Shown: positions 8,156 to 58,285 of the stretch, piece by piece
How positions within the stretch are numbered: position 1 is the first letter of the stretch
How the letters are laid out: every line of letters begins with the position of its first letter
Source: an uncultured Gemmatimonadaceae bacterium
GTDB taxonomy: Bacteria > Gemmatimonadota > Gemmatimonadetes > Gemmatimonadales > Gemmatimonadaceae
Reading direction: 5' to 3'
Assembly: GCA_963790305.1 (NCBI GenBank)
Contig: CAWBOC010000013.1
Location: 64,001-128,000, forward strand
DNA length: 64,000 nucleotides
Program-made: the position numbers and the translations under genes
Notes under the pieces: model-generated
What the model was told of the DNA's origin: nothing
The model's input: only the letters and a program-made list of their open reading frames with translations
The model's database searches: none

Positions 8156-9346
8156 GGCGAGCCAGGGCTGAGGGGAGCGGCCGAGCCAAGCGCCGCCATC
8201 ACGGCATCGGCGAGTGCGACACGAACCTGGCCGATCCGCGTGTTCTGACGGGAAGGATTTACACGGTTGGTCAGCAGGACGACGAACACCCCCGCCTCCG
8301 GGTCCATCCACAGCGAAGTCCCGGTGAATCCGGTGTGGCCAAAAGCGCGCGCCGACATACGCCGGCCGGCTGAGTTCTGGCCCGACGGGGTTTCCCAGCC
8401 AAGTGCGCGGTGCGAGAGCCCGGGATCTTGGACCGCAGTGAATTGCGCGATCGTCGATGCGCGAAGCACGCGAACCCCATCGAGCGTCCCCCCCGCCAGC
8501 ATCATCCGGGCGAAGCGCGAGAGATCGGCGGCGGTCGAGAACAGCCCTGCATGCCCGGAGACTCCGCCCAGCATGAACGCGTTCTCATCGTGCACCTCGC
8601 CCCGGATGTGCCGCTGGCGCCACGGATCGTACTCCGTTGGCGCGATGCGATCGCGCAGCGACGCGTCCGGCCGGTAGAGCGTCGAGGTCATGCCTAACGG
8701 CCCGAACACGTGACGGGCGAGATAGGCATCGAGCGCCTCGCCACTGACGCGCTCGACCACTTTGCCGAGGAGAATGGCGCCCAGGTCGCTATAGACCATG
8801 CGCGCGCCCGGAGCCGTATCGAGCGGCGTGGCGAAGACGATTGCCACCGCGGTGTCGGCCGCCGTCGCTTCCTTGTACAACGGCCGCCATGACGGCAATC
8901 CGGACGAGTGGGTGAGCAGGTGCCGGATGGTCACCCGCTCCTTTCCCTCGCCCGCGAACTCGGGAAGGTATCGTACGACCGGCGCATCGAGCTCCACGCG
9001 GTCCTGCTCGACGAGCTGCATCATGGCGGTCGTCATGCCGACGACCTTCGTGAGCGACGCCAGATCCCACAGGGTGCGCTCGTCAGGCGCCGGTGCATTT
9101 GCCGGCCAGTCGATCCTCCCCACCGCGTAGGAGGTCTGCCCGCCGTCGCGCGTACCGACGACGCCGATCGCGCCGGGAAACGCGCTGTCGGCGATCGCGC
9201 GATCGAGCACGCGGACGATGGCGTCGTGCACGACTCGCATGGGCGCTCTCTCCGGCTCGGGCGCGACGATCGGTCGCGTGGCGGGTGCGCAGGCGGAGAT
9301 GACGGCGAGGACGACCGAACATGGCGACCCAGCGCGGCAGGGTCAC
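8152..9346 (-). CDS. Serine hydrolase, beta-lactamase/class C family (AmiE-like), probable lipoprotein; frameshift near 9315
   Basis: SxxK (ASLTK), LLTHSSG, YSD and GHTGFTG motifs; upstream in-frame VLAVISAC lipobox joins a GTG at 9346 (overlapping the nagZ stop) across one indel. Confidence 0.85.
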
Positions 9347-21111: not shown

Positions 21112-22098
21112 ATGGCGAACACGCACGAATACGAGGTCGTGATCATCGGTGCCGGTCCTGCCGGCATGACCGCCGGCATGTATGCCGGCCGGGCAATGTT
21201 GCGCGCCGTAGTGCTCGAACGCGGGGCGCCTGGCGGGGAGCTGCTCAACACGGAGATCATCGAGGACTATCCGGGCTTCGAGCACATCGAGGGCTGGGAC
21301 CTCGCGCAGAGGTTCGACTCGCACGCGCGGAAATTCGGGTCGGAACTGCACACCGCCACCGTCGAGCGAGTCCGAAAGGCCGACGATGGCTGGTTCGAGA
21401 CGGTTACCGACTCGGGCGACGTCTATCGCTCGCCAACGGTCATCCTGACTGCGGGGGGAACGCCCGTGAAGCTCGGCGTCCCTGGCGAGCTCGAGTACGC
21501 CGGGAAGGGGGTGTCGTACTGCGCGATTTGCGACGGCGCCTTTTTCAAGGGACATCGGATCGCGGTCGTTGGTGGAGGTGATGCGGCCGTCGAAGAAGCG
21601 GATTTCCTGACGCGTTATGCGGAGAAGGTCTACCTCATCCATCGCCGTGACCAGCTGCGTGCGTCGAAGATTCTGCAGAAGCGCGTGTTCGACAATCCGA
21701 AGATCGAGCTCATCTGGAACACCGTGGTCGATCGCATCGAGGGCGATGCCAAGGGTCTGGTGCGGGCGCTCCATCTTCACAATGTCGTCACCGATGCGAG
21801 CTCGGTCCTGGACGCGACGGGCCTGTTCGTGTTCATCGGCTTCCGCCCGAATACCGGCATCGTCGACGGGCACGCGCGTCATGACGAGGGCGGGTATCTC
21901 GTCACCGACGCCAATATGGAGACGACCATTCGCGGGCTATTCGCCGCGGGGGACGTGCGAGCACAGCTGGCACGGCAGGTGACGACCGCGGTGGGCGACG
22001 CGACGACGGCGGCGATCGCGGCGGAGAAATACCTCACCGCGCTCAAGAACGGCCAACTCGACCCGCAGCTGCTGTCGAGCGGTGGTTACGCCGTGTGA
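21112..22098 (+). CDS. trxB: Thioredoxin-disulfide reductase
   Basis: IIGAGPAG, GVSYCAICDG, VGGGDAAVEEA, GLFAAGDV. Confidence 0.96.
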   Translation: MANTHEYEVVIIGAGPAGMTAGMYAGRAMLRAVVLERGAPGGELLNTEIIEDYPGFEHIEGWDLAQRFDSHARKFGSELHTATVERVRKADDGWFETVTDSGDVYRSPTVILTAGGTPVKLGVPGELEYAGKGVSYCAICDGAFFKGHRIAVVGGGDAAVEEADFLTRYAEKVYLIHRRDQLRASKILQKRVFDNPKIELIWNTVVDRIEGDAKGLVRALHLHNVVTDASSVLDATGLFVFIGFRPNTGIVDGHARHDEGGYLVTDANMETTIRGLFAAGDVRAQLARQVTTAVGDATTAAIAAEKYLTALKNGQLDPQLLSSGGYAV

Positions 22099-22742
22099 TC
22101 GTCCGCACGCTGACGGTGGGACCGCTGGAGGAGAATGCGTACCTGGTCGTCGACGACACGACGCGTCGCGCCGTGCTCATCGATCCCGGCGACGAGCCGG
22201 ATCGCCTGCTCGAGGCGGTGCGGGATGACCGGGCCGACCTCGACGCCATCTGGCTCACGCACGCCCACATGGATCACGTCGGGGCCATCGCGGGGATCGT
22301 CCGACACACCCCGGTGCCGATCTACGTGCATCCGAGCGAGCGCCCCATTTATGACAGCGCTGCACAGCACGGACTGGTGTTCGGGCTGCGGGTAGAGCAA
22401 CCCCCGCCGCCCGATCGCGATCTGGCGGACGGTGACACACTGCACGTCGGGACGCTGTCGTTCTCGGTCATTCATGTTCCGGGGCACGCACCCGGGCACG
22501 TCGCGATTCATGGGAATGGCGTCGCTTTCGTGGGCGACTGCCTGTTCGCCGGATCGGTGGGGCGCACGGACCTGCCTCTCGCCAACGGGGCGCAGCTCGC
22601 GCGCTCCCTCGAGCGCATCTGCGCACTGCCTGACGACACAATTGCGTACCCCGGTCACGGTCCCGCGACCAGTATCGGGCGCGAGAAGCGAACGAATCCG
22701 TTCTTGACCGGCGCCGTTCGCCTCACAGGGTTCGACCGGTAG
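22095..22742 (+). CDS. MBL-fold metallo-hydrolase (glyoxalase II/YcbL-like)
   Basis: THAHMDHVG, PGHAPG, GDCLFAGSVGRTD, PGHG. Confidence 0.92.
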   Translation: MIVRTLTVGPLEENAYLVVDDTTRRAVLIDPGDEPDRLLEAVRDDRADLDAIWLTHAHMDHVGAIAGIVRHTPVPIYVHPSERPIYDSAAQHGLVFGLRVEQPPPPDRDLADGDTLHVGTLSFSVIHVPGHAPGHVAIHGNGVAFVGDCLFAGSVGRTDLPLANGAQLARSLERICALPDDTIAYPGHGPATSIGREKRTNPFLTGAVRLTGFDR

Positions 22743-34931: not shown

Positions 34932-35990
<1,059 letters not shown>

Positions 35991-35992
35991 GC

Positions 35993-36949
35993 ATGCGCGC
36001 TCTCGTCACTGGGGCAGCGGGATTCGTCGGGCAATGGGTCGGACGCGAGCTGGTCGAGCGCGGCTGGGACGTCACCGGAACCTGTCTGGAGGACGCGCCC
36101 CCCGAGGTCGCACCTAACGATCCGCTGGCGTCGGTTCGATGGCAGGCGGGTGACGTGCGGTGCGCCGAGGACGTGGCGAGGCTGCTCGATACGGCGAAGC
36201 CCGACGCGGTCGTGCACCTCGCCGGGCTCGCGTTCGTCCCGGCGGCCCAGGCGGATCCGGGCGCGGCCCTCGAGGTGAATGTCATCGCTGCCGCGCGGCT
36301 TCTGGCGGACGTGAAGGCGCGCCGGGCGTCCGGCACGCTCGACCCTGTCGTGCTGATTGTTGGCAGTGGGGAGCAGTACGGGCGGCACGAGGCCGATGCA
36401 ATGCCGTTGGCCGAGTCGGCTGAGCAGCGCCCGCATTCGGTGTATGCCGCTTCGAAGGCAGCGCAGGAATTCATCGCGCTCGAGGCGTTCCGATCCTCCG
36501 GAGTTCGCGTCGTTGCCACGCGTAGCTTCAATCATAGCGGTCCAGGCCAGGCCGACCGATTCCTGTTGCCGGCGCTGGTGGGTCGCGCCCTTGGGCTTCG
36601 CGCGAGCGGCGAACGCGGATTGCCGATCGGAAACACCACGACCGTTCGCGATTTCCTTCACGTGCGAGACGTCGCGCGCGCCTATGCCGATCTGCTGGAG
36701 CGGGGGCAGTCCGGTGACGTGTACAACGTCGCGAGCGGGACCGGCGTGGATGTCGGGACGCTCGCCAAGCGCGTGCTTGCTCTGGTGGGCGTCAATGCGA
36801 TATTGAACACCGACGCTGCGCTGGTGCGACCCGTCGAGGTGCCGGTCCTCATAGGGGACGCCACCAAGCTGCGACGCGCGACCGGATGGTCGCCCCGATT
36901 GACTCTCGACTCCATCATCAACGATCTGATCCGTGCCGCGGCGAGCTGA
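35993..36949 (+). CDS. GDP-4-keto-6-deoxy-mannose reductase-like (Rmd, GDP-D-rhamnose)
   Basis: [37 protein letters not shown]; directly after gmd. Confidence 0.8.
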
Positions 36950-39900
36950 CCTGCACCGCATCATGCTGATCGGCTCCGGGCCGATCATCATCGGCCAGGC
37001 GGCCGAATTCGACTATTCCGGGACGCAAGCGGCGAAAGCGCTTCGCGAAGAAGGCTACCAGGTCATTCTCGTGAACTCGAATCCCGCGACCATCATGACC
37101 GATCCCGAGTTCGCTCACCGGACGTATGTCGAACCGGTGACGCCGGAGATCGTCGAGATGATCATCGAGCGCGAGCGCCCGGATGCCCTCCTGCCGACCA
37201 TGGGAGGCCAGACGGCGCTCAACGTGGCCATGGCCCTCGCTGAACGGGGCGTTCTCGAGAAGTACGGCGTGGAGCTCATCGGCGCCGACGCTCGCGCAAT
37301 CAAGCTGGCCGAGGATCGGGAGCAGTTCGCGGAAACGATTCGGCGAATCGGCCTCAAGGTGCCGATCGGAGGCATCGCCCGCTCCTGGGAGGACGCGGTC
37401 GGTCTCATTGATCGCGTTGGCTTTCCGGCGATCATCCGACCGTCCTTCACGCTCGGTGGCACGGGCGGGGGTATCGCCTACAATCGTGAGGAATACGAGG
37501 CGATTGTCGAGCGCGGTCTCGAGCTCTCGCCGACGCACCAGGTGCTGATCGAGCAAAGCGTGATCGGGTGGAAGGAATTCGAGCTCGAGGTCATGCGCGA
37601 TCACGCCGACAACGTCGTGATCGTCTGCTCGATCGAGAACATCGACCCCATGGGGGTTCACACCGGCGATTCGATCACGGTGGCGCCGGCCATGACCCTC
37701 ACCGATCGCGAGTACCAGAACATGCGCGACGCCGCCGTCGCCATCATTCGCGAGATCGGCGTCGATGCCGGCGGGTGCAACATTCAGTTCGCGGTGAACC
37801 CGCCGTGATGGCGAGATGCTCGTCATCGAGATGAACCCGCGGGTCTCGCGATCGTCGGCGCTGGCGTCGAAGGCGACGGGCTTTCCCATCGCGCGCATCG
37901 GGACAAAGCTGGCCGTGGGGTATCGGCTCGACGAGCTCGTCAACGACATCACCAGGACGACGCCGGCGTCGTTCGAGCCGGTGCTGGATTACGTGGTCGT
38001 GAAGTTCCCGCGTTTCGCGTTCGAGAAGTTTGCCGCCGCCGATCCACGCCTCACGACGCAGATGAAATCTGTCGGCGAATCGATGGCGATCGGGCGCACG
38101 TTCAAGGAGGCGTTTCAGAAGGGTCTTCGCGCGCTGGAGACCGGCCGGTCGGGATGGACGATCGGCCAGACGCTCGCTCGACGACCGACTCGCGGACGAC
38201 ACCATGGAGACGCTTCGCGGCGCACTTCGCCAGCCGACGCCGGAGCGCATCTTCCAGGTCAAGCACGGATTCGCGCGAGGCATGAGCGTCGATGAGATCG
38301 CGTCGCTCACCGCCATCGATCCCTGGTTCGTCGCGCAGATGAACGAGCTTTGGGAAGCGGAGGGGTGGTACGCTGCGCTCCCGTCGGTAGGCGCCGACGA
38401 GATGCGCCGGATGAAGCGCATGGGATTCTCTGATCGACAGCTCGCGGCGATTCGCGACGAGCCGGAGAGCGACGTCCGCCGGCATCGGTGGGCGCTTGGC
38501 GTGCGCCCCGCCTACAAAATGGTCGATACGTGCGCCGGCGAGTTTCCGTCGGCGACGCCATATCTCTACTCGAGCTATGACGAGGAAAGCGAGGCGGAGC
38601 CCAGCGGCCGGCGCTCGGTGGTCATCCTGGGGAGCGGTCCGAACCGGATTGGGCAGGGAGTCGAGTTCGACTATTGCTGCGTGCGGGCGGCGCTCGCGCT
38701 CCGCGAGGCGGGCTATGAGACGATCATGGTCAACTCGAATCCTGAGACCGTCTCGACGGACTTCGACATCTCCGACAAGCTGTACTTCGAGCCGCTCACC
38801 CTCGAGGATGTGCTCGAGATCGTGGAGCGCGAGAAGCCGTTAGGCGTGATCGTCCAGCTCGGCGGTCAGACGCCACTCAAACTCACGCGACCACTGGAGG
38901 CGGCCGGGGTGAACATCCTCGGCACGACGCCGGACGCGATCGACATCGCCGAGGATCGGCGGCGCTTCGAGGCCATTGCGCGCAAGCTCGGCGTGCTTCA
39001 GCCACCCAATGGCACCGCCACCAGCGTCGATGAGGCGGTCGAGGTCGCGGCACGGGTTGGATATCCGGTGTTGGTGCGGCCGTCGTACGTTCTCGGCGGT
39101 CGCGCCATGGAGATCGTGTACGACGAGCCCTCGCTTCGCGAGTACTTCGTGCGTGCGGTGCGCGTCTCCGAGGATCGACCGGTGCTCGTCGATCGCTTCC
39201 TCGAGGATGCCTTCGAGGCCGACGTCGATGCGATCTCCGATGGCAAGCGCGTGGTGATCGGCGGCATCATGCAGCATATCGAGGAGGCCGGTATCCACTC
39301 CGGTGATTCGGCGTGCGTGCTGCCGCCGTACCTCATCGGGGAAAAGGATCTGGAGACAATGCGGCGGCATACCGTCTCCTTTGCGGAGGCGCTGGGCGTC
39401 GTGGGCCTGATCAACGTGCAGTACGCGATCAAGGATCGCGTCGTGTACGTGATCGAGGTCAACCCGCGCGCGAGCCGCACGATCCCGTTCATCTCGAAGG
39501 CGACCGGCGTCCCTCTCGCGTCGGCGGCCGCGCGCGTGATGCTCGGGGAAACGCTCGAGGCTGCCGGCGTTACCGAGGAGATCGTGCCGCCGTACATCTC
39601 GGTGAAGGAGGCGGTGCTGCCCTTCAGCAAGTTCCGCGAATCAGACCCGATCCTGGGACCCGGAGATGCGGTCGACCGGCGAGGTCATGGGCATCGCCGA
39701 CTCGTTTGGCGCGGCCTACGCGAAGGCGCAGATGGGCGCGGACAACACCCTGCCGACATCGGGCGCGATCCTCATCACGGTGAACGACCCGGACAAGCCG
39801 ACGGTGACGCCCATTGCACGACGCATTCACGCGATGGGATTTCGCATTCTCGCGACACCGGGAACGGCGACCTATCTGCGCGCGCGCGGCATCCCGGCCG

Positions 39901-40181
39901 ATACGGTCATGAAGCTTCACGAGGGTCGCCCGAACGCGATCGACTTCATCGTGAACGGCGAAGTCCATCTCCTCATCAACACCCCGCTCGGCAAGCATGC
40001 CCAGCAGGACGACTACACGATGCGTCAGGCGGCGGTCGCTCACCGTGTGCCGTACACGACGACCATGTCGGCGGCGAACGCGGCGTGCGACGCGATTCTC
40101 GCGCTTCGATTCCGCTCGCTCAGCGTGAATTCGCTGCAGGAGTGGCACGAGCAGACGAGGAAGTTCGAAGGGGTGCGATGA
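36933..40181 (+). CDS. carB: Carbamoyl-phosphate synthase large subunit (frameshifts near 37805, 38180, 39660)
   Basis: [61 protein letters not shown] and MGS domain across four consecutive ORFs. Confidence 0.95.
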
Positions 40182-40222
40182 GTGTCTTTGCCGTTGAACA
40201 CCGAACCCGTTAGCGGTACGAG

Positions 40223-41339
40223 ATGCCCGTTCCACTCTTGGATCTGAAGGCGCAGCACGCGCTGATCAGGAACGATGTCGTCGCCGAAATGCTTCGCGTC
40301 GTCGACGAGCAGGGGTTCATCCTCGGTCCGGCGGTCGAGCGCTTCGAGCGGGCGGTCGCCGAGCTGTCGCGCGTGAAGCACGCCATTGGATGCGCCAGCG
40401 GAACCGACGCGCTGCTGCTCGCCTTTCGCGCGCTCGACATCGGCGCGGGCGACGAGGTCATCACCGACGCCATTCACCTTCTTCGCGACGGCGGGCACCA
40501 TCCATAACGTCGGCGCGACGCCGGTGTTCGCCGATATCGAGCCGGAGACGTTCAATCTGGACCCCGCGCTCGCCGCCGTCGTCGTGACCTCGAGGACCAA
40601 GGCGGTGGTGCCCGTCGACCTCTTCGGCCAGATGGCGGAGATCGAGCGGTTCTCGGAGCTGATGCCGAGGATTCCGATCGTCGAGGATGCGGCGCAGTCG
40701 ATTGGCGCCCGTCGCAAGATTGGCGGACGGCCGGTCATGGCCGGCGAGGCGGCGGCAATCGGGACGCTGTCGTTCTTCCCGACGAAGAACCTTGGCGGTT
40801 ACGGCGACGGCGGGATGATGGTGACCCAGGACGACGGGATCGCCACCCGTCTGCGCAGGCTCCGCGTTCATGGCGGTGCGCGCGAGTACTTCCACGACGA
40901 GGTCGGGTACAACAGCCGCCTCGACACGATCCAGGCTGCCGTTCTGCTCGCCAAGCTTCCCCACCTCGAGCGATGGAGCAGCAAGCGGCGCGAACATGCC
41001 CGGTTTTACGACCAGGCGCTCGCCGCGTGATACCGGGTGTCCAGACCCCCGTCGTCCGCGCCGAGAACGAGTCGATCTTCAACCAGTACACCATTCGCGC
41101 GGAGCGACGCGACGAACTGGCCGCTCATCTCAAGAAGAAGGGCATCGGGACGAAGGTCTATTACCCCTTGCCGCTGCACCTCCAGCCCTGCTTTTCACAT
41201 CTCGAACTACAAAGCGGGGGCCTTCCCGGAGTCGGAACGGGCGGCCGCCGAGGTGATCTCACTGCCTATTTTCCCGGAGCTCACCCCGGGGCAGCTCGAT
41301 GAGACGGCGTCCGCGATTCGCTCGTTTTATGGCCGCTAA
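40223..41339 (+). CDS. DegT/DnrJ/EryC1/StrS sugar aminotransferase (frameshifted)
   Basis: MPVPLLDLKAQ, SGTDAL, EDAAQSIG, SFFPTKNLGGYGDGG, GYNSRLD, YYPLPLHLQ, SLPIFPEL across several frames. Confidence 0.9.
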
Positions 41340-45711: not shown

Positions 45712-48123
45712 GTGGGCGAATCGATGATCGAGCAGCGGCAGGAGGGATCGGGCGCGCCGGCGGATCGCGCGCTCCCGCTGCGCAATCTCATCGCCGCGTT
45801 GCGGCATCGCTGGTGGGCGTTCGCGGTGGTGTTGGCGCTCGTCGTCGGGGTTTCGACCTGGCGGACGTCGCGCACGACGCGGCTGTACGCGACGACGGCG
45901 ACCGTTCGGATTCAGGAATTGCAGACCGGTCCCGTCGGCGTGCAATCGCCGACGGTTCGCGACTATCGCGTCGATCCGATCCAATCGGAGCAGGAGATCA
46001 TCAAGAGCAAGGCGGTCGCCGAGCGCGTCGCCGAGCACCTGGGGCTCCGTCTCTACATTCTGAACCCTCCGAAGCTCCAGCGCGGTGCACTGTTCGGGCA
46101 AACGATGCCCGAGGTCGACTCGACGGTGCAGTACGGCGAGTACGTGGTGCGGCTTCGCGGGGACGGCTATTCGCTGTTCTCGAACGGATCGCATGCTCGC
46201 GTCGGCTCCGTACGGGCAGGAAGTGCGGGGCGGCGGCGTCGCGTTCACGATTCCGGCGCGGCCGCGCATCGAGGAGAACGAGATCCGGCTCGGCGTGATG
46301 CCGCTGAGCAGCGCCGCCGCACAGGTTCGCGGCGGGCTGACGACACGCAGCCGCCCGCAGACGAACATCGTCGAGATCTCGTATACCGGGGCCGATCCGG
46401 TGATGGTGGCGCAGATCGCCAATACGGTCGCGCTCATGTATGCGCGGTACACGACGGAGCAGCGGCGTCGGCTGGCGATCGAGCGTACGCGATCCACGGC
46501 CGATGCGGTCGAGAATCAGCGCGCCGAGCTCGCGCTCGAAGCAGGAGGCGCTGACGCAGTTCAAGGAGCGTGGGCGCCTCTCCAGCATCGAGGCGGAGCA
46601 GGCGGCGTTAGGCACGCAGATTCAGGGCTTCACCAGGCGAGCGCGACGCGCTGCTCATCGAGCAGCGGACGTATGGCACGATTCTCGGCAAGCTCACGCA
46701 GGCCGACACCGCCGATCTGGAGCTGCGCCAGCTCGCGGGGACCGGCGCGATTCGCGACAACGCGCACATGCAGTCGCTGTTCGACCGGTGGTTCGACCTC
46801 CAGAAGCAGCGCGCGCAGCTGATCGCCCCAGGTCGCAACGAGAACTATCCCGGACGTCCAGGCCGTCGATCAGCTCATTCGCGCGACGAAGAACGAGCTT
46901 CAGCAGGCGAGCAATTCCTACCTCGTCGGCTTGCGCTCCCGCATCTCCTCGCTCGACAACCGCATCAACGAGCTGCGTCGCGAGATGGAGAAGTATCCCT
47001 CGCTCGGCGCGCAGGAACAGCGGCTGACGCGCGGAGGTGCAGACCGCGCAGCAGCTGTACGGAACGCTGCTCGGCGAGCTGCAGCGTGCGCGCATCGCGG
47101 AGTCCAGCGAAGGCGGGTACGTGACCGTCATCGACAACGCGATGCAGCCGTTCTCGCCGGTCTCGCCGAATCGGAAGCGCATCTTCCTCACCGCGCTCAT
47201 CTTCGGCTCGATCCTCGGACTCGGTGCGGCAGTGGTGCTCGAGAATCTCGATGATTCGGTGAAGTCGCCGGACGAAGTGCGCGAGCAATTCGGCCTCTCC
47301 GTCGTCGGCACGATTCCGGGCATCAAGGATTCGGACCTTCCTGGGGAGAACGGCGCCGAGGTCGCCCGACGGCTCGCGACGCACTTCGATCCCCGCTCGC
47401 CGGTGGCCGAGGCGTATCGCTCGCTGCGAACGAATCTCGCGTTCGCGCGGGCGCACGAAGCGATGCGCATTCTGGTGCTGACGAGCCCCGGGCCCGCCGA
47501 CGGAAAGTCGACCACCGTCGCGAATCTCGCGATCACGTTCGCGCAGCAGGGGCAGCGCACGCTCCTGATCGACGGCGATCTTCGGCGCGCGGTGCTCGAC
47601 AAGATGTTCAAGGTGCCGCGGTCGCCTGGGCTTACCGACGTGCTCGTTGGACGTCAGCGTCTGCGCGATGTCGTTCACAAGACGGAGATCGAGCACCTGT
47701 CGGTCGTCGGCAGCGGACCATTTCCGCCGAATCCGTCGGAGCTCCTCGGCTCGAGCGCCATGCGGGACGTGCTGCGCGACGCGCAAAGCGAGTTCGATGT
47801 CGTGCTGATCGATTCGCCGCCGCTGCTGGCCGTCACGGATGCGGCGGTGCTGGCGACGATGGCGGACGGGGCGATCCTCGTCATCCGCGTCGGGCGCGAC
47901 GGCGAAGGCGGCCGTTAGGCGCGCGGTCGCTCAGCTGCAGACCGTGCACGGTCGCGTCGTCGGTGCGGTGCTGAACGACGTCGATCTGCGCAGCGGCGCG
48001 TTCAGCGGGAGCTACGGGTACTACTACTATTACTACTACGGCGAGGGGGCGCGGAACGGAAAGCGCGGGCCGCTGCATCGAATTCGAGAGCGACTGAATC
48101 GTGCGCGGGCGCGATCGTCGTGA
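45712..48123 (+). CDS. wzc: Polysaccharide co-polymerase/tyrosine autokinase (frameshifted)
   Basis: N-terminal TM, coiled coils, PVSPNR+TM, EAYRSLRTN, Walker A GPADGKST, LIDGDLR, IDSPP, C-terminal YGYYYYYYY cluster. Confidence 0.92.
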
Positions 48124-49240
48124 CACAGGCCCGTGGGCATCCCGTGCATCCTCTCGTACCAGTGCTTCAACTGGCGATGGGCGACGGTGCAGGCGCGCTG
48201 CCGGCGGCGGATGACTGGTGGGACGTCTATCGGCTGAGCATCCGCGAGAGGTGCGCAGGCCTCATCTGGCTGCGATCTGGCGACGTTGTTCGGAGCCAAG
48301 CGCCTACCGAGCTGGTGCAAGCATGGCGATCTGAAATTGTCCGGCAGTATGATCGCGGTGAAGCACTGGTTTCCCGAGTCGGTCAAAGCGTGTCACGTCT
48401 GTGCGAGCATGGCATTTCCTGTGTCGTGCTCAAAGGCGCGCCGCTCGCCGCGCAGCTCTACGGCGATCCGCTTGTTCGCCCGATGGACAATGTCGATCTG
48501 TTCGTGCCCGCGGCCGACTGGGAGCGTTCCGCCGCGGTGCTCGAGGAAGATGGTTGGGCAAAGGAAATAGGCCGGGCGGGCTGGTCGGAGATCTATCGAC
48601 TCACGGATGCACGCGGAACACTCTGGCTCGATCTACAATCGAGCCTTCTCGTCGATCATCTCAACCATCTGCCTGAAATATCGGGGACTGTCGGACCTTG
48701 GCATTGGCGGGAGATGGTTTCACACCTACGTCGGACCTGAGGTCGCCGTTTTCCTCGCTGTTCATTTGCTCAACCATCGCTGCCGCCCGTGCTTTGGTTG
48801 ATTGACTTTCACACCTGTTGGTCCACGATGTCGGAAGGCGACCGGCGCGAAGCAATGCGCATTGCACGTGGAAGCCGACTCCATCGGTATCTCCGGTGGG
48901 CGGTTGAGCGCTCGTCCCTCCTTCGTGAAGCCTCCAGTGGTGGGACAGGAGCCCTGCGCAGGCTCGGCTTTCACCCGTCATTCCGCCGCGACGACTACGG
49001 GATGCTTCGCTTGACCGCATTGGCCGCGTCAGTTCCGGACGTGGTTGCGGTGCTCGGAGCGTGGGCCTGGCCACGACCACTCCGCTATGACTGGGCCGCG
49101 TTCCGCCAAATGTGGCAGCGACGGGCAGCAAAGACATTTCCCGAGTCTTCGCCGCACGTCGCCTGTACTTGGACCCGCGCGATCGATCAGATCTTGGTGC
49201 GCGCACCGCTCAGGACGGGGTCAATCGCCTTCAGAACTAA
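48120..49240 (+). CDS. Nucleotidyltransferase family protein (NTP_transf_5-like, RiPP-associated type); frameshifted, 3' end approximate
   Basis: VVLKGAPLAAQLYGDPLVRPMDNVDLFV motif; later FLAVHLLNH and WLIDF segments in shifted frames; GTGA overlap with wzc. Confidence 0.75.
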
Positions 49241-49244
49241 TTTC

Positions 49245-49768
49245 GTGAAGCGACTGGGATCCACTCCCCCCTACCTCGACGACCGCGGCCAAATCAATGC
49301 TCACGTCCTGCCGAACGAGCGGCCCGGACTGGCAATAGCCGCGGAGCTGGTCGCTCGGGGCAGCGCATGGGTCCGTGGATGTGGGAATAGCATGGCACCG
49401 ACGATTCGTGACGGCGACCGCGTACTGCTTCGGGCCGTTCCCGTCGACCGTCTTCGCCGAGGTGATGTCGTCGTGATCGCGGTACGAGAAGCGGCGGTGC
49501 TGCACCGTACCACCGAATCCATGCGGGGGGTCTCGTGGAAACGGTCGGCGATGGAAAACTCAGTGGCGACGGCGTATTCGCGCCTGATCATGTATTGGGC
49601 GTCGCGGTGCTCGCCGAGCGCAGCTCTTCGCGTGTCACATTGCGCTCAACGTTGGAGTTCGGCGTTGCCGCATATCTGCGGGGTATCGCGCTGCTGGCCC
49701 GGCTTCGGGTTGCTCAATGGTGGCGACGGTCGAAGGCATACCGGGGTATGGGAGGGTCGCGGGTGTGA
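49245..49768 (+). CDS. S24/S26-family peptidase (signal-peptidase-like); frameshifted, start approximate
   Basis: GNSMAPTIRDGD (catalytic Ser), GDVVV, VLHR, then ETVGDG...DHVLG in the next frame. Confidence 0.7.
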
Positions 49769-50710
49769 GTGCCAATGCGGACGAAATCGTCACGACCGAT
49801 CGGGACGCGCCTCGGGAGACGCTAACGTGGAGTAAGCCAACCGCTGCGCTGTCAGTCGCGCTCGGTGGCCTTGTATTCCGTTTTGTGTCCGTGCATCCCC
49901 ACATCCAACTGAGGCTGAGTAACCGATTCGAGCTATTTCGAGTGTCTGAAGACGTCAGCCCCGACTGCATCGTGCGCTGGTCCGAAGGACGCGTCTCCCC
50001 GCTGACCACTGGGGTTGTGTTGCAGGAGACGGACATCTGGGAGACTCGGCTCATGCCAGACGGCAGCGAGCGGACTACGTTCTTCGCCGGTGCAACGCGG
50101 CGGCCGTACCTGGGCCTGACCTTCCGTTCCGAGTTTCGAACCGCCGAGGTCATCCAGGCGCGGGAAATGGGCGGCAACGCTGCCCCGGAGATGCACCCGT
50201 TGTCCGAGTTCCTGACCACGCGTGTGTTGGCGACGCGCGCCGTGTAGAAGTGCACGGCAGCGCGGCGGTCGTAGGGGGAAAGGCCCTGCTATTCGGGGCC
50301 ATTCCGGAGCAGGAAAAACCACCATTTCACGCATCGCCGAGCGGTCTGGGGCCGTCGTCTTGAGTGACGACCGTGTGATTCTGGGAATGAACCATGGCCG
50401 CGCCACGGCCTGGGGAACGCCATGGCACGGATCGGGCTTCTTCACGGCCGCAAGTTCGAGCGATCTCGCCAGCGTGTTCTGCTGCGCCAGAGCGCAGTCG
50501 ATCGCGTTACGCCCATGCGTTATGCCAATGCAGTCAAAGAGCTATTTGTGAGACTGGTGCAAGTCCGTGTCAGTGCGAGCGAGGTCATTGAGTCGCACAG
50601 TGCTATAGGAAATTCTCGAGTCGGTCCCGGCGTAAGACCTTTCTCTTTTTCGTCCGACCGTCTCGGCGTTTTACCTCCCAATGCGAGCCGCCAATGTCCA
50701 AGCCTCGTGA
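49765..50710 (+). CDS. HPr-kinase-related P-loop protein (frameshifted)
   Basis: VHGSA, GHSGAGKTT Walker A, VLSDDRVIL, AWGTPWHG; GTGA overlap with the peptidase stop. Confidence 0.75.
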
Positions 50711-50747
50711 TAAAAGAGCATCTAGTCCCAGAAAAACACCAGTCGGC

Positions 50748-51028
50748 GTGAGTTCGAGTGCGCCTATGTACACAGAGCGCTCAGGCGACGTGATCGGTTT
50801 GTCTACCGCCATATCGCTGGCGAGCACTTGTTGATCAACCTTCACAGCAAAGCACGCGTCCCCTACTTCCTGTTGACGCCGACGGCCGCCGCGATCTGGG
50901 ATCGCCTCGCGGACTGGGCGACACTGGATGAGCTGGCGAAGAATCTCACGACACGATTGAGGTCGGCCAGGTGGAGGCGATGGCCGACGTGGCGAGTTCT
51001 TGACCCAGTTGGAAAGCTGGGGGGCTGA
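50748..51028 (+). CDS. PqqD-family RiPP recognition element (frameshifted)
   Basis: FVYRHIAGEHLLINL...YFLLTPTAAAIWDRL...TLDELAKNL, then EVGQVEAMADVAS in a shifted frame; ends approximate. Confidence 0.8.
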
Positions 51029-52213
51029 TGCGCGAGGCTGGTACGACATGCGTGCGCGATTCCCGAGGTCGCGATTCCCGAAGTCGGGGCACAAGTCCTG
51101 TTCGACCGCATCAACTCCCGTGCTCGCGCGGAGCGCATCCCGCTGAGGCGGACATCGAGATCATCGCGACCTGCAACTACAAGTGCGTGCATTGCTACAT
51201 CGCGCCCTGCGCCGAACGGAGCGATGTCATGTCGCTGGAGCAAGCACGCGTCATCTTCGGAAAACTCCGCGATGCCGGGACGCTCAGCATCTTGCTCACG
51301 GGCGGAGAAATCTTCACGCACAAGCAGTTCAAGGCGATCATCTCGAGGCCAAGCAGCATGGCTTCATCGTCGCGTTGAACACGAATGGGTATTTCATCGG
51401 AACGAAGTGGGCGGACTTCCTGTCGGAGTATCCGCCGAAGGTGGTATCGATCAGTATCTACGGCGCGACGAAGGAAAGTTACGAGGCGGTGACGGGCATC
51501 CCGAACTCGTACGATCGGTGTATGCGGGCGATCGACTTGTTGCACGAGCGGGGGATCAAGCTCGATCTGAAAGTCCCTGCAATGGGGCCCACCGTTGCGG
51601 ACATCCCTCGCCTCCGTGAGTTCGCGGCGAGTTACGGGATCAAGTTCCGCTTCAATGCCATGATTGTGCCGGAGGAGAGCGGCAACGCGCGTCCGCTCAA
51701 CTTGCAGCTCACTCCTGATCAGATCATGGCGGTCGAGCGGCAGGTCGATCCGGATTGGACCATCCTGCGACGGTACTCGGAGCCTCGCCTCGGAGAGCGA
51801 TCGAACGCGCCCATCTATCAGTGTGGTGCCGGTCGCACTGGCCTCGCCATTAACGTGCATGGTGGTGTCACGACCTGCATCACGTCCCGACAGGTCATCG
51901 GCAACCTGCTCGAGCAATCGTCGACGACATCTGGGGAGCACTATACGGGAAGGTCGAACGACGCTTTCCCGATGGCCACCCGTGCGCGACGTGCAAGTTC
52001 CGGGGAATGTGTTCCGGCTGCCCGGCGCTGGTGGAGCAGTTGACCGGCCTACCCGAAGGCTACGTGCAGCACTTTTGCAAGCTCACGCATCTTCACGCCA
52101 AGGAGCTTGGCTACCACGCCACTGGTGTTCCGCGAACAGTCACGGAAGGCATTCCAGCCCACGTGGCGACGCCGCGCGATCGGTACGCTCGCGCGCTTCC
52201 TGTGATGAACTGA
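51028..52213 (+). CDS. Radical SAM/SPASM-domain peptide maturase (frameshifted)
   Basis: CNYKCVHC, LTGGE, NTNG, SISIYG; SPASM CGAG...GGVTTC...IGNL...CATCKFRGMCSGCP...FC. Confidence 0.88.
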
Positions 52214-52241
52214 CGTCCCCTTTTTCAGCTTGAGGCGCCCT

Positions 52242-52424
52242 ATGTCATCCGAACGACAGCCCTACGTCAAGCCAAGCATGATTCGACTCCACTACGAAGC
52301 TGACTTGGCTGTCAGCTTGCAGGGAGCATGCAAGTCGAACACGACGACCGGATCCGGATCCGCGACTTCCACCTGCGCGCTGGCGGAAGGTGGAAGTGCG
52401 TGCAATACGATTACTGATAGCTAG
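52242..52424 (+). CDS. Putative RiPP precursor peptide (60 aa, three Cys, C-terminal Ser)
   Basis: GAGG RBS; MSSERQPYVKPSMIRL leader with YxxP motif; core CKSNTTTGSGSATSTCALAEGGSACNTITDS; 28 nt after the rSAM stop. Confidence 0.78.
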   Translation: MSSERQPYVKPSMIRLHYEADLAVSLQGACKSNTTTGSGSATSTCALAEGGSACNTITDS

Positions 52425-52488: not shown

Positions 52489-53997
52489 ATGCAACGTCGT
52501 GCTCTGCTTCCCGTTGAGGTGCGTGTGTGTAGACCTCTCTTATTCCTGGCGACCCTCGCTCTGCTCTCGGCCTGTGATGACGATCCGCAAGCTCCGGTCG
52601 CCGACGAGCCTCAAGGTACGCTGGTCACCCCGGCGGTCATTTCCCGTGAAGGCTCGATCGCCGTCCTCTTCGATACGCCCTTGGATACGCGGGGTGCGCA
52701 AGACCCAGCGAATTTCGTGGTGATCAATCAGTGCACGGGGTTGCGCGTGGCTGGCTCGTTGCGACTGGGACGTGGGGCTGCCGGCGACACGCTCATCTTC
52801 ACGCCGTCGAACCGTCTGCCGTTCCTCACGCAGTTGTCCATTCGCATTCAGAGTTTGTTGTCCGCGTCCGGCACTCCAATGGGGCTGCCCTTCGTTACGA
52901 CGGTGACGACGGAAGCGCCGCCCGTCTCGGATATCAGCTGGGAATCGATTCAGTCACCGACGAGTGACTTCGTGTTGGGGGCGACCTTCGCGACTCGGAC
53001 TCGGGTTTTTCTGACCGCGTCATCGGGCGCGGTGTATCGCAGTGAAAATGGCGGGGTCACGTACGCCGCCATTTTCAAGGACCCCAACATCATCACGACG
53101 CGCTCCGTTCGCACGTCGGGCCCCGACACGGTTTTCATGGCGGGGGCTTTGAACGAAGCAGGGAGCTTCTCGACTGCGGCGATTTTTCGCAGCACGAACG
53201 GTGGGCTGACGTTCACGCCCATTTTCACGCAGCGCCCGGCGGACATGCGTAGCCTTGTCGTGGTCCCGCGGGGAACGGTCAAGCCCTCGTTATATGCCGT
53301 TGGGAATGTCAGTGGAGCCTTTACCGCCTGGCGCTACGATACGCAGACCGACTCGGTATTCACGCTCCCGGCCGTCGGTGGTCAAATCGCGAACGGCGGA
53401 GAGCTCTCGCCCGATGCCTCCCACGCGGTTGCCGTTGGCTTCATAAACGCCGTCGGGCAGGCCGGTGCGGCGCATCGGTCAACCGATGGGGGTCGGACCT
53501 ATCAGGCGGTGACGCTCCCAGCAAACACCGGGCAGTTGCGCTCCGGGGCGTTCGTCTCCGCCAATCTCGCCGTGCTCGTGGGCGATTCGGCCGTGGTCGT
53601 CTCGCTGAATGCGGCGACGGGTGCGACGGCACGCATTACAAACGGCGTTCCGCAGAACTCGACGGTTGGACAGACCACACTTCGCTACAGTTATCGGAAA
53701 ATCGACTTCGCTCCAGGAACGCAACTGGGATGGATCGTTGGCATCGAGACGCAAGTTACGCCGAATCAGCCTGACGACGTTCGCGGAATCATCCTCATGA
53801 CGCGCAATGGTGGAGCCACGTGGCAGCGCCAGGCAGTGGTGGGCGCTCCAGAGAGTGGCCTGGCCTTCCCGACGTTGGTCGACATCCACGGCCTCGCGCC
53901 GGATCGCGCTATCCTCGGGGGGCTGCAGGGCTTCGTTGCCACGCGCACGGCAGATATCCAAACCGGCGCTCAAGTCTGTTCAATCCCGGAAGAGTGA
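52489..53997 (+). CDS. Lipoprotein with N-terminal Ig-like domain and BNR/Asp-box (Ycf48-like) beta-propeller
   Basis: LLSAC lipobox; DTLIFTP Ig-like segment; repeated RSENGG/RSTNGG/RSTDGG/TRNGG Asp-boxes; start uncertain. Confidence 0.78.
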   Translation: MQRRALLPVEVRVCRPLLFLATLALLSACDDDPQAPVADEPQGTLVTPAVISREGSIAVLFDTPLDTRGAQDPANFVVINQCTGLRVAGSLRLGRGAAGDTLIFTPSNRLPFLTQLSIRIQSLLSASGTPMGLPFVTTVTTEAPPVSDISWESIQSPTSDFVLGATFATRTRVFLTASSGAVYRSENGGVTYAAIFKDPNIITTRSVRTSGPDTVFMAGALNEAGSFSTAAIFRSTNGGLTFTPIFTQRPADMRSLVVVPRGTVKPSLYAVGNVSGAFTAWRYDTQTDSVFTLPAVGGQIANGGELSPDASHAVAVGFINAVGQAGAAHRSTDGGRTYQAVTLPANTGQLRSGAFVSANLAVLVGDSAVVVSLNAATGATARITNGVPQNSTVGQTTLRYSYRKIDFAPGTQLGWIVGIETQVTPNQPDDVRGIILMTRNGGATWQRQAVVGAPESGLAFPTLVDIHGLAPDRAILGGLQGFVATRTADIQTGAQVCSIPEE

Positions 53998-54004
53998 GTT
54001 GTCC

Positions 54005-55284
54005 ATGAACGACGCGCATGGTCGACGGATTCGTCGAGCGTTTTCGCCAATGCTTTCGTTTCGCAGCGCCCTCATTGCGATCGCTGTCCTGCTCTCGAGC
54101 GCTGGGGCGCTCAAGGCGCAGGTCGTGGTCGGAGGCGACTTCGATATTTGTGACTTCTGCGGCAATGTCGACGCCAACACGATTCGGCTAGTCGGACGGT
54201 CCGGGTTCGGACCAGATCGCGCGACGATGCACCTCGTGAACGCCGCTATCGCCGAGCAGGACGTTGATAACGACGGGTACACCGCAGGCATCGACTTTGA
54301 CCGGTTGTTCATCGTCGACACCATCGATTTCGTCAATCAGGAAGATCCCGCATTTGTCATTTCCTCCACCAACTTCCGGCTCGGCGATTTTCTCAATCCG
54401 TTGAGAAACGGTGGGACCAACCGGGTTGTGATCCGTGTGGACATCCCCGAAGGGACAAAGGCAGGGACCTATCGCGGGGGCCTGACGATTCGGGACTCCG
54501 TCCGTGTCCCGGGGCTCAATTCGAACGGTGAGATCCTTCGCGAGGACTTTGTCATCATCGAGATCGAGGTGCTTCCGGCTCGAGCCATCGACTTTGTCGC
54601 CGCAGACAGCGCTGTAGCGCTCGATTCTCTGGTCATCGCCGGACGGCCGGGGACTACGGCGAGCGGGGTCGTGCGCATCGCGAATCTCGGCAATACCGAG
54701 ATCACGGGGCTTCACCTGGAGTCAACGGACTTGGTGGCCACATCCGGGACGGGACTTCGAATTCGGCGCGATCGAATCACGTTCTCGCCCAACGACTGAA
54801 TTCGGTGGGATTCGGCGATACGGTTCGTATCAAGGTCAAGTCCGCATACCCCAGGGACTGCTCGCCGGCACGTATCGAGGTGAGCTGATCGCCCAAGGTG
54901 ATAACGTCGAGGCGATACGCGTTCCATTCTCCGTGATCGTCACGACGCCAGGCGACATCGTTTTCGAGACGAATCCCGTCGTCGGACGCGCAGGCGATCT
55001 GGCGGTGATCATCTTCAACGCCGATCCGGGCAGCAACTGGGAGCTGGCGGTCTTCGACATGATGGCGACCACGACGTTCCGAACCTCAGGGACCGTGTTC
55101 GAAGGAACCCCGGGCACGCGGACTGATCCCCGGATTCGAGGGCGATCAGGCCGTTCGCTACACGTGGCCGCTCGTGAACGGACGCGGGGAGAACGTCGCG
55201 GGCGGCATGTATTACGTCGTCATCAACGCGGTGCAGGACGGCGAAGAACGCCAACTGCGCGGCAAACTCATGGTCATTCGCTGA
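54005..55284 (+). CDS. Secreted Ig-repeat protein with FlgD/T9SS-CTD-like C-terminus (frameshifted)
   Basis: Signal peptide ...ALKAQ; two repeats (VDIPEGTKAGTYRG / VRIPQGLLAGTYRG); tail NP...WPLVNGRGENVAGGMYYVVI...KLMVIR-stop. Confidence 0.7.
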
Positions 55285-55294
55285 GGCCGGCATC

Positions 55295-56837
55295 ATGCAC
55301 AGACCGATAGCTCTTCTCGGTGTCGCGCTCTCGACGCTGATCGCCGGGCCGACGCAAGCGCAATTCGCTGGAGGGGACGCCGACGGCGGCGTCTACAGCA
55401 TGACGCTCCTCGGCATTCCGGTCTCGCCACGCGCCGTGGCGCTCGGTGAAGCGATGGCCGCGATCGATCGCGATCCGTCCGCCATTTGGTATAACGCCGC
55501 CGGCATGCTCGGATTGCGCACCAACGCGTTCACCGTCAACGCGCAGCAGCGGTTTGCGCAGACGCAGGTGCTCGGCGCTGCGGTGACGTTTCCCACCGAG
55601 ATCGCGACGTTCGGCATCGCCGCGCGTGCGTTCAACGGCGGAACGATCGAAGGACGCAGCGAGGGGGAGCCAACCGGCGGTGACGTCCGTGCGTTCCAAT
55701 GGGCGCTCGAAGGTGGCGGCGCGTTGCAGCTCGCCCGGTGGTGGCGGTGGGGCGGTACCCTGATGTTCACGCAGGAGCAGCTCGGCGACGCCAGCGAGGC
55801 ATCCGTCGGCGTCAATTCGGGAATGCAGTTCCCCGACATTCTCTTCGGTCGCCTAACGCTCGCCGGCGGCATCCGCAACTGGGGCACGAACGTCAACTTC
55901 GATGAGAGCTTCGAGGGCTTCTCGCCGCCGCAGATGTTCTATTTTGGCGCGGGGATCGATGTCTTCCGCCGGCGGAACCTCATCCAGACGCCGATGCTCT
56001 TCCGCGGGCAGCCGATCATTTTCGACGCCAAGGTGGTGGGACAGTTCAACGTGCCCGGACCGGATGGAGCCCTACGTCGGGCTCGGCGTCGAGGCGACCG
56101 TGAACGGCGTCGCCATCGGCCGCATTGGGTACCAGACGGGCGACGACAACCGCTCGGGAATCTCCCTCGGCGCGGGCGTGAACGTCGGCCAGTTCCGCCT
56201 GGAATACGCGTTCCGGAACTACAAGAATGGTGGCGCCGGCTTCTTCGAGAACGATCCGGTGGGCGACGCGCATAACGTGAGCTTCACCTTCTTCTGGGGT
56301 GAGCGCGAGCGCAATGAGCCGGTCGTCCCCGTGGTCGTCGCCGCGCCGGTCGACACGGCCTCGATCAATGCCGCGGTTCGCGGCGCCATTCAGGAGCAGC
56401 TCGCGGCGCTCCGTCCGCTGCTCGATTCGCTGCGTGCGCAGCAGGTCACCATCGAGCAGGCGGATCTCGTATCGCGGTACATCGTCCCCGTCCACTTCGG
56501 GTTCGACTCCGCGGTCGTGCGCGAATCCGACTTCGAGGTCCTGGGCAACGTCGCGGAGGTCATTCGTCGCGTGTATCCGACGGCGCTCGTGACGATCGAG
56601 GGATTCGCCGATCCGGCGGGGTCCGTGCAATACAATCTCGATCTCTCTCGCCGCCGCGCTCAAGCGGTTCGCGAGGTCATGATCTCGCGCTTCAACCTCC
56701 CGTCGCAGCAATTCCGCGCGGTGGGATACGGGGAGCAGACTCAGCGACAGATCATTCCCGGCGCGCGGCGCGACGATCCAGGCGCCCAATCGAACCGGCG
56801 CGTGGTCTTCACCATCGACGCGACGCAGCGGTTCTAG
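55295..56837 (+). CDS. PorV/PorQ(FadL-superfamily)-like beta-barrel fused to an OmpA-like peptidoglycan-binding domain (frameshift near 56060)
   Basis: [16 protein letters not shown]...[11 protein letters not shown]; barrel end GISLGAG..FRLEYAF; OmpA motifs [33 protein letters not shown]. Confidence 0.75.
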
Positions 56838-56976: not shown

Positions 56977-58285
56977 GTGCAGATCACTGTCATCGGGACC
57001 GGGTACGTCGGTCTCGTCGTTGGCGCCTGCCTCGCTGAAACCGGAAACGACGTCATCGGCGCCGACACCGACGCGGCGAAGATCGAGAAGCTGCGCCAGA
57101 ATATCCTGCCGATTTATGAGCCTGGCCTCGACGACTACGTCGAACGGAATCAGGCGCATGGACGTCTCACGTTCACGACGGATATTCCACAAGCGATCGC
57201 GGCAGCCGAGGTCATCTTCATCGCCGTCGGGACGCCGCCTGACGAGGATGGCTCGGCGGACCTTCGCCACGTGCTGATGGTGGCGGAGCAGATCGGACGC
57301 CACGCGAGCCGCGAGCTCGTGGTGGTGACCAAGTCGACGGTGCCGGTCGGTACGGCGGCAAAGGTTGAGGAAGTCATCAGCCAGCATTCGCGGTGGCCCG
57401 TCCACGTGTGCAGCAACCCGGAGTTTCTCAAAGAGGGCGCCGCCGTCGAGGACTTCATGCGCCCCGATCGCGTCGTGCTCGGCGTGAGCACCGACCACGC
57501 GCGATCGGTCCTGGCGGAGCTCTACGCGCCCTTCGTTCGCACGGGGAAGCCGATCCTGTTCATGGATGTCGCCTCCGCCGAGCTTACCAAGTACGCGGCG
57601 AACGCCATGCTCGCCACGCGCATTTCTTTCATGAATGAGATCGCGAATCTCTGCGAGCGCGTTGGCGCGAACGTCGACCTCGTGCGGAAAGGAATCGGGT
57701 CCGACTCACGAATCGGAGCCGCCTTCCTGTTTCCCGGTCCCGGTTACGGCGGCTCGTGCTTTCCGAAGGATGTGAAGGCCCTCGTGCGGACATCCCGCAC
57801 ATGCCAGGCGCCACTAGGCATTCTGGAGGCGGTCGAGGCCGCCAACGAGCGACAGAAGCGGCGTCTCTTCGAGAAGCTGGAAGAAGTGCTCGGCGCGAGC
57901 CTGAAAGGGTCCCGGATAGCCGTCTGGGGATTGTCGTTCAAGCCGCAGACCGACGACATGCGCGAGTCGCCCGCCCTGATCCTCATCGATCAGCTGCTCG
58001 ACGCGGGCGCCTCCGTCGTCGCTCACGACCCGGTCGCGATTCCGGAAGCGCGACGCCGGCTGCAGCGATCGCGTCTCCTTCGCCGAGACGAGCTACGCGA
58101 CGCTCGAGGAGGCGGATGCGCTCGTGATCGTGACCGACTGGAACGAGTACCGCCATCCCGATCTCAAGCGCATCAGGGCGACGCTCAAGCGACCAATCGT
58201 CGTCGATGGCCGCAATCTGTACGATCCGGCCAAAATGCGGTCGCTCGGCTTCACCTATCTCTCGATCGGACGGGGTGAAGGGTGA
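56977..58285 (+). CDS. ugd: UDP-glucose 6-dehydrogenase (frameshift near 58065)
   Basis: [44 protein letters not shown]; tail VTDWNEY..VDGRNLY ends overlapping the next start. Confidence 0.93.

Follow-up and report, generated by a model that had tools for sequence, protein, structure and literature searches.

The closest described systems are the linear polyphosphorylated peptides (LPP) of Bacillota, with the cluster LppA/K/B/S/D/N (Popov et al. 2026, PMC13381572), and two phosphorylated lasso peptides, paeninodin and pseudomycoidin; our statements on published systems refer to the sections of the cited papers that were consulted. Cleavage by LppS requires its RiPP (ribosomally made peptide with post-translational modifications) recognition element (RRE) and the residues Ser/His/Asp (PMC13381572). 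The lasso kinases carry a His-Lys-Asp-Asp motif and act on the C-terminal Ser of the precursor (PMC9266682), and the addition of a hexose to the lasso phosphoserine requires PsmN, the double Asp mutant of which is inactive (PMC6993621). The LPP main text describes no radical S-adenosylmethionine (rSAM) enzyme, and in the supplement Radical_SAM occurs once, heading a column in a domain matrix (PMC13381572). Here we analysed a window of 64,000 nucleotides from an uncultured Gemmatimonadaceae bacterium (contig CAWBOC010000013.1, positions 64,001 to 128,000), in which a cassette within a capsule locus encodes a nucleotidyltransferase (NTase), a peptidase, an HprK-like kinase, an RRE, an rSAM enzyme with a SPASM domain and a 60-residue peptide (Table 1). 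The cassette is an rSAM version of the capsule-linked peptide pathway LPP, and the rSAM enzyme, the three-Cys precursor with a terminal Ser and the phylum are new.

A preliminary description, made from this DNA alone, had proposed six tightly packed genes of a RiPP pathway. All six coding regions and the quoted motifs lie where it had placed them, and the overlap that it had noted between the GTG at 48120 and the wzc stop codon (48121-48123) is present. However, the C-terminal half of the NTase and the N-terminal half of the peptidase share one stop-free frame (48765-49514), and the two are fused at 13 of 29 relatives' loci, a fusion being counted if both domains reach 40 bits within one stop-free frame. 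Therefore, the six coding regions may be five genes, and NTase and peptidase may form a single protein.

The precursor and its co-occurrence with the enzymes

Judged by its sequence, the 60-residue open reading frame (ORF) is a real precursor with a YxxP leader, three conserved Cys and a conserved terminal Ser/Thr, and it is almost certainly the substrate of the cassette. Alignment A8 comprises 54 distinct peptides, of which 39 come from 46 database matches and 15 from loci; the seven matches left out were near-duplicates or truncated. All 54 peptides share the Tyr, the Pro and two of the Cys, with the Tyr 22 residues ahead of the first conserved Cys in 51 of them. The last residue, preceded by variable positions, is Ser in 51 peptides and Thr in the other three. 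This terminal Ser had been overlooked in the preliminary description, and its term Cys-rich stands for 3 Cys in 60 residues. At loci found through the rSAM enzyme, 28/30 closed profile-called peptides end in Ser versus 36/302 neighbouring proteins. Because the peptide profile itself includes the terminal Ser, a rule blind to the C-terminus was applied to 79 metagenome loci. It gave 41 distinct precursor calls, 29 ending in Ser, 4 in Thr and 8 in other residues, against 11 Ser-ending proteins among 235 neighbours; these calls are uncurated; they miss some real precursors and may include a few false ones.

Searching with the rSAM piece of the window revealed strong matches in 11 of 60 relatives and four further weak ones. 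The order NTase-peptidase-kinase-RRE-rSAM-peptide is conserved at the Gemmatimonadaceae loci within contig reach; all 11 strong loci keep it up to the contig ends, and the peptide gene is present at every scanned locus of this family that has sequence 3' of the rSAM gene. A genome scan yielded 44 loci, comprising 30 from Gemmatimonadota with the same order, three from Lachnospiraceae with shuffled parts and 11 distant rSAMs without a detected cassette gene. Among 401 Gemmatimonadaceae genomes, which include non-independent kin and many fragmented assemblies, the rSAM gene was found in 51, the main-type peptide in 33 and the downstream immunoglobulin (Ig)-like gene in 48. The rSAM gene accompanies the peptide in 32 of the 33 peptide-carrying genomes; 41 genomes carry both the rSAM and the Ig-like gene, and 343 carry neither. 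A phylum-wide search with a narrow rSAM profile at 1e-40, with 4 candidates scored per genome, matched 5/401 genomes, all Gemmatimonadaceae. The unpublished genome G015 contributes one alignment row, and the unpublished G433 and G495 enter the tallies; the conclusions do not depend on them. The 79 metagenome loci with a related rSAM, many on short contigs, span 30-74% GC and contain the kinase at 53, the RRE at 52, the peptidase at 25, an ABC transporter at 12 and the NTase at 10 loci. Thus the adjacent peptide and the co-occurrence of the genes, both anticipated in the preliminary description, were found, and the sequences support an RRE-dependent RiPP pathway with this peptide as its putative substrate.

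The position of the cassette between wzc and ugd could also mean that the enzymes belong to a polysaccharide pathway and that the small ORF is there by coincidence. Evidence against this comes from the RRE, the YxxP leader and the strict co-occurrence of peptide and enzymes, and from a genome (G025, 96% complete, 5 contigs) in which wzi-wza-wzc is directly followed by ugd and the whole block is missing. We consider this explanation extremely improbable. The G025 layout also indicates that the block from the NTase to the PorV-OmpA gene was gained or lost there as one piece.

Variants of the arrangement were observed. Two tandem cassettes with different precursors, of three and five Cys, occur at L042, and the precursor gene is present in two copies at L045:10893-11317. 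Another locus, L080:7649-10732 (G000:C5), combines a second rSAM enzyme and an HprK-like kinase with a small Cys-free peptide ending in Pro and a beta-propeller lipoprotein. Precursors of 80-135 residues, together with a Gly-Asp kinase motif and an ABC exporter, were found in Lachnospiraceae and other low-to-mid-GC versions (L061:9416-9859, L064:589-1002, L139, L151 and L153), of which L064, L139 and L151 adjoin wzc.

Proposed maturation of the peptide

We propose that the cassette matures its own peptide into a cross-linked, tail-phosphorylated product, a scheme that we hold, as a whole and from sequence, to be evenly balanced between right and wrong. The RRE would bind the precursor at its YxxP leader, the rSAM enzyme would form thioethers between the conserved Cys and the peptide, and the terminal Ser would receive a phosphate from the kinase; the NTase could optionally put a hexose onto the terminal phosphoserine, and the SipW-type peptidase (signal peptidase I, SpI) would remove the leader.

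The peptidase residues Ser24, His61 and Asp76 are invariant in 28 relatives, all three motifs are kept in 30 of 31 domains, and the best Protein Data Bank (PDB) matches are SEC11C (E 4e-9) and SEC11A (E 6e-9). The RRE of an intact relative matches PqqD (E 6e-15), and the RRE profile matches the lasso B1 proteins TbiB1 and TfuB1, 9x90 and the LppB complex 9x8z (E 8e-5). A complex prediction for RRE, precursor and peptidase scored 0.30, versus a mark of 0.32. By analogy with LppS/LppB, RRE-dependent leader cleavage by the peptidase is highly probable. The cut is most likely just ahead of Cys30, although we are unsure of this site; a small residue (Ser, Ala or Gly) precedes the first Cys in 47/54 peptides, which suits an SpI enzyme.

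The kinase has the His, the Walker-A Lys and the Asp-Asp in 11/11 Gemmatimonadaceae rows and Gly-Asp in both Lachnospiraceae rows. A regular-expression search of the relatives' ORFs recovered His and Asp-Asp in 26 of 32, and the remainder were inspected by alignment. Five loci whose precursors have Pro, Gly, Gln or Asp as the last residue group as a single clade with a support of 99 in a quick tree of 48 of the 49 labelled rows (L162 was too short). In four of these five loci the kinase motif is readable, and there Glu-Asp replaces Asp-Asp. The joint loss of terminal Ser/Thr and Asp-Asp, a single event, fits the terminal Ser as the kinase target. The NTase belongs to PF14907, with Asp-x-Asp in all 29 relatives. 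Phosphorylation and glycosylation of the product, both suggested earlier, are supported by these sequences as likely. In one subgroup (L060:6167-8170, L036:2600-4264, L057:6567-8132), the NTase carries an extension made up of a GNAT domain, a degenerate second S24-like domain or both, which suggests an added acylation.

Alignment of the rSAM enzymes revealed CxxxCxxC and seven invariant SPASM Cys, and the best PDB sequence match is SkfB (E 4e-21). The AlphaFold model is of moderate quality (pLDDT 71). The A8 cores contain no Trp or His, and Tyr in only 1/54, so that the Cys are the sole conserved reactive side chains besides Ser/Thr.

Several observations weigh against this scheme. All ten five-Cys precursors have a Cys 4-6 residues ahead of the 'first' Cys, which argues against a cut directly ahead of the first Cys and for an earlier one. 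The G028 peptide, which is not in A8, ends in Cys despite an Asp-Asp kinase, and L130 and L162 are further exceptions to the pairing of kinase motif and terminal residue. In addition, the residue two after the first Cys is Thr in 27 and Ser in 13 of the 54 peptides, and LPP carry their phosphate on core Ser3. Within the same pathway, an LPP-like kinase would phosphorylate this Ser/Thr (core position 3 if the cut precedes the Cys), leaving the terminal Ser for another step. LppK modifies core Ser3 (PMC13381572), the peptidase is of the LPP type, and Ser or Thr occupies the position in 40/54. However, 14/54 peptides have no hydroxyl group there, whereas 54/54 end in Ser/Thr; Thr, the commonest residue here, is not accepted by LppK (PMC13381572), and the position is unconserved in distant precursors. 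This site is unlikely in our opinion; it is probable that the kinase acts like PadeK and PsmK and phosphorylates the terminal Ser.

The NTase of the window has Asn at residue 124 (codon 48489-48491), giving Asn-x-Asp, where Asp is invariant elsewhere (29/29), and deletion of lppN had no effect in a heterologous host (PMC13381572). A hexose on the terminal phosphate, as for PsmN, is possible but falls slightly short of an even chance. The block also lacks an exporter. In the window and 35 cassette loci, profiles matched no ABC exporter, lasso cyclase or B2 protease, in agreement with the preliminary description; the control, the genome's own lasso cluster, matched. Among the 79 distant loci, wzc is present at 6, and at 5 of the 29 that exceed 9 kb.

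Thioether formation by the rSAM enzyme also has points against it. The precursor Cys are widely spaced, unlike those of hairpin sactipeptides, and the top models are mixed (GeoRSP, AhbD, NirJ2, MftC), with at most 90 bits versus cut-offs of 265-500. A fold search places SuiB, SkfB and anSME alike and does not separate the reaction types. Six active-site-proximal residues, read by eye from the alignment, are Y, T, N, S, V/T/L/I/S and T/S; they agree at three positions with StsB (Y, T, I, S, K, L) and at one with CteB (F, F, T, S, H, Q) (PMC10288494), which is not diagnostic. Instead of thioethers, the enzyme might form an ether or C-C link, epimerise the peptide or oxidise Cys like anSME, with the Cys serving as disulfides or metal ligands. 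Consistent with this, the rSAM enzyme reached no NCBIfam family cut-off, including those of the thioether-forming sactipeptide and ranthipeptide models and of the SynChlorMet, GeoRSP and HPr-rel models, and SuiB and anSME are among the structural neighbours. The two extra Cys of the five-Cys precursors occur together in 10/10, as disulfide partners would, though these peptides are not independent. Against it, the Cys number is odd (3 in 43/54, 5 in 10/54), which makes full pairing impossible, no conserved aromatic residue is available for aromatic cross-links, and Gly is found 7-9 residues past the first Cys in 47/54, Gly being the StsA acceptor (PMC10288494). We judge such other chemistry rather improbable, and the sequences modestly favour formation of Cys thioethers.

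Gene integrity and envelope context

Every cassette enzyme gene carries frameshifts, with roughly twelve breaks of the reading frame over 4.3 kb, and profiles from intact relatives cover each gene piecewise in changing frames. These breaks might be true frameshifts in a decaying copy of a real family. The Asn in place of the invariant Asp would then mark a dead NTase, and the window NTase and kinase are only 33-39% identical to their best relatives. However, wzc is broken about as frequently, with most of its pieces 88-98% identical to a relative; rpoC of the same genome is split across two frames; and in related-strain contigs a single additional base is present at each of two break sites, 48778 and 51920 (one contig per site, depth 5.1 and 3.9). 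For these three reasons the frameshifts are most likely assembly errors. In addition, the window copy keeps the catalytic Cys, Ser, His and Lys, and the relatives diverge pairwise from one another as much as it does. Decay of this copy is therefore quite improbable.

The unit had been proposed as 48120 to 52424. This core was confirmed, but the conserved unit in Gemmatimonadaceae usually reaches 56837, adding three envelope genes. An obligatory nine-gene unit was ruled out, as at L090 the cassette is directly followed by ugd and the Ig-like gene is missing from 10 of the 51 rSAM genomes. Loci with a nucleotide-sugar dehydrogenase upstream in place of wzc likewise ruled out an invariable link to that gene. 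Capsule or nucleotide-sugar genes adjoin the cassette, which bears out the linkage to surface loci suggested earlier. We infer cross-linking and a surface role for the product; from gene position alone, a role at the cell envelope alongside capsule synthesis, not as an antibiotic, has about an even chance. More specifically, a thioether-stapled peptide with a phospho-sugar Ser tail bound to the capsule could be a ribosomal product on which surface polysaccharide is anchored or primed, with the beta-propeller lipoprotein, the sorting-tail protein and PorV-OmpA serving to display or sense it. We regard this as quite unlikely. If true, the peptide would be a structural envelope RiPP of a family spread over many bacterial groups, and the wzc adjacency of lasso, LPP and rSAM pathways would be explained.

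Table 1. Features of the cassette and its surroundings (positions in the window).
Feature	Position	Strand	Evidence and remarks
wzc, polysaccharide tyrosine autokinase (context)	45712..48123	+	NCBIfam Wzc E 4.5e-52; tblastn pieces to a relative; several frameshifts
NTP_transf_5 nucleotidyltransferase, PsmN/LppN-like	48120..49190 (end approximate)	+	Pfam NTP_transf_5 E 1e-20, profile pieces, motif table; possible peptidase fusion
Soluble SEC11/SipW-type signal peptidase domain (Ser-His-Asp), likely leader peptidase	49300..49768 (start approximate)	+	PF00717; Pfam Peptidase_S24 E 3e-6
HprK-like kinase; His, Walker-A Lys and Asp-Asp spread across frameshifts	49765..50710	+	Motifs, profiles; NCBIfam HprK_rel_B E 4e-5 (weak)
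PqqD-type RRE, stand-alone	50766..51030 (end approximate)	+	PqqD in intact relative; window piece Pfam PqqD E 2.5e-4, under cut-off; profile matches to solved RREs
Radical SAM enzyme, CxxxCxxC and seven conserved SPASM Cys	51040..52213 (start approximate)	+	Pfam Radical_SAM in two pieces (E 7e-7 and 1e-7), SPASM E 0.019; alignment, profiles
60-residue precursor: YxxP leader, Cys30, Cys45, Cys54, terminal Ser60 (codon 52419-52421)	52242..52424	+	NCBIfam StsA E 0.039 (weak)
Predicted lipoprotein, Big_5-like Ig domain and BNR beta-propeller repeats	52489..53997	+	Cassette companion in Gemmatimonadaceae
Predicted secreted Ig-like protein, C-terminus like a type IX secretion system (T9SS)/FlgD-type sorting tail (lead only)	54005..55284	+	Atlas score 0.88; C-terminal Arg in 25/25
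PorV/PorQ-like barrel fused to OmpA peptidoglycan-binding domain	55295..56837	+	NCBIfam PorV_fam E 6.5e-22, under cut-off; OmpA; single ORF in relatives
UDP-glucose 6-dehydrogenase (context), right block border	56977..58282	+	

At 54005-56837, the T9SS-like sorting-tail protein adjoins the PorV-like barrel-OmpA fusion outside Bacteroidota, which is a lead only. The region 34932-41027, 5' of the capsule genes, encodes GDP-mannose dehydratase, an epimerase, a CarB-like ATP-grasp protein and a DegT aminotransferase, a possible source of sugar donors for the NTase. Two further genes were identified by fold match only, a beta-lactamase-fold gene (PF00144) at 8155-9342 (-) among amino-sugar uptake genes and a metallo-beta-lactamase-fold gene (PF00753) at 21885-22739 (+). 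No Rfam match was found in the window from 40 to 62 kb, promoter and terminator scans gave results at or below chance, and no plasmid record matched the rSAM enzyme at E 1e-25. Among the sequencing runs carrying this DNA, no RNA run is listed and the sole DNA run has a share of 0.05.

Comparison with described pathways

The preliminary description had presented the cassette as a new RiPP system, which overstated its novelty, since LPP, described in 2026, has this core of peptidase, RRE, HprK kinase and NTP-transferase within capsule loci (PMC13381572). Similar to LPP, as far as described in the sections consulted, the cassette has an archaeal-type SpI peptidase with Ser/His/Asp, a discrete RRE and YxxP leader, an HprK-like kinase with an NTP-transferase, and a capsule-locus setting. 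The differences are also clear. LPP clusters have an MsbA-like exporter, which is missing from the window and found at 0/35 cassette loci, although 12/79 distant loci have an ABC exporter. The LPP leader consensus is YxxPxVLxHQxIxFETxxS, of which the cassette leader shares YxxP alone and lacks HQxIxFETxxS. The LPP product is linear with variable C-termini, whereas the cassette adds an rSAM/SPASM gene next to a precursor with three conserved Cys and a conserved terminal Ser. In LPP, core Ser3 is polyphosphorylated; the candidate position here is Ser/Thr in 40/54. The cassette also comes from another phylum and has three envelope genes attached.

The paeninodin and pseudomycoidin clusters (PadeK, PsmK, PsmN; PMC6993621, PMC9266682) share the His-Lys-Asp-Asp kinase, the NTP-transferase, the discrete RRE, the YxxP-type leader and the conserved C-terminal Ser, but in the sections consulted they have a macrolactam cyclase, a B2 protease and an ABC exporter where the cassette has the rSAM and SpI enzymes. 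The genome of the window contains a complete lasso cluster of its own between rpsG and fusA (L078:5079-12403, G000:C9), with RRE, B2, cyclase, two Ser-ending precursors, kinase, an ABC-2 pair and NTase. Its kinase, paired with the NTase and the Ser-ending precursors, is related to the cassette kinase (hhalign probability 96.5). Its leaders begin with YxxP too, so that the two RREs must discriminate between leaders, as in LPP. In a genome of another family (G046), genes for ABC, kinase, cyclase, RRE, B2 and NTase lie directly beside wzc (L087:4043-13183), and a pattern search there found no precursor. L079:6363-11401 (G000:C5) has a wzc-like gene and, farther on, RRE, B2-like and NTase-like genes; neither kinase nor precursor was seen there.

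The search for three LPP features and for the lasso cyclase was negative, and the cassette is therefore a member of neither system. SynChlorMet (TIGR04248-04251), GeoRSP (TIGR04303) and HPr-rel-A/B (TIGR04352/3/5) have part lists similar to that of the cassette. Their models give weak kinase, RRE and rSAM matches, with scores far below the cut-offs (ScmC 35/125, GeoRSP rSAM 90/400, HprK_rel_A 34/200). Discrete-RRE sactipeptides (StsA/B/C, PMC10288494), SkfB and ranthipeptides (CteB) share a stand-alone RRE, a SPASM rSAM enzyme and a three-Cys precursor. However, the cassette Cys are widely spaced, its rSAM reaches 55-77 of 625 bits with the StsB model, and the Sts cluster, as described in PMC10288494, does not include a kinase, an NTase or an SpI.

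The literature searched, mostly without subscription papers, contained no description of an rSAM-bearing cassette, and no characterised product of the SpI and rSAM version, which ranges from Gemmatimonadaceae to Lachnospiraceae. The cassette thus offers an uncharacterised rSAM subfamily together with its putative substrate. Being compact, it is also suited to asking which group NTP_transf_5 enzymes transfer and why capsule loci are home to phosphorylated RiPPs. By analogy, the cassette would resemble LPP in binding and cleavage and pseudomycoidin in the tail. One tailoring chassis of RRE, Ser kinase and NTP-transferase is combined with three different cores, the lasso cyclase with B2, SpI alone in LPP, and SpI with rSAM in the cassette.

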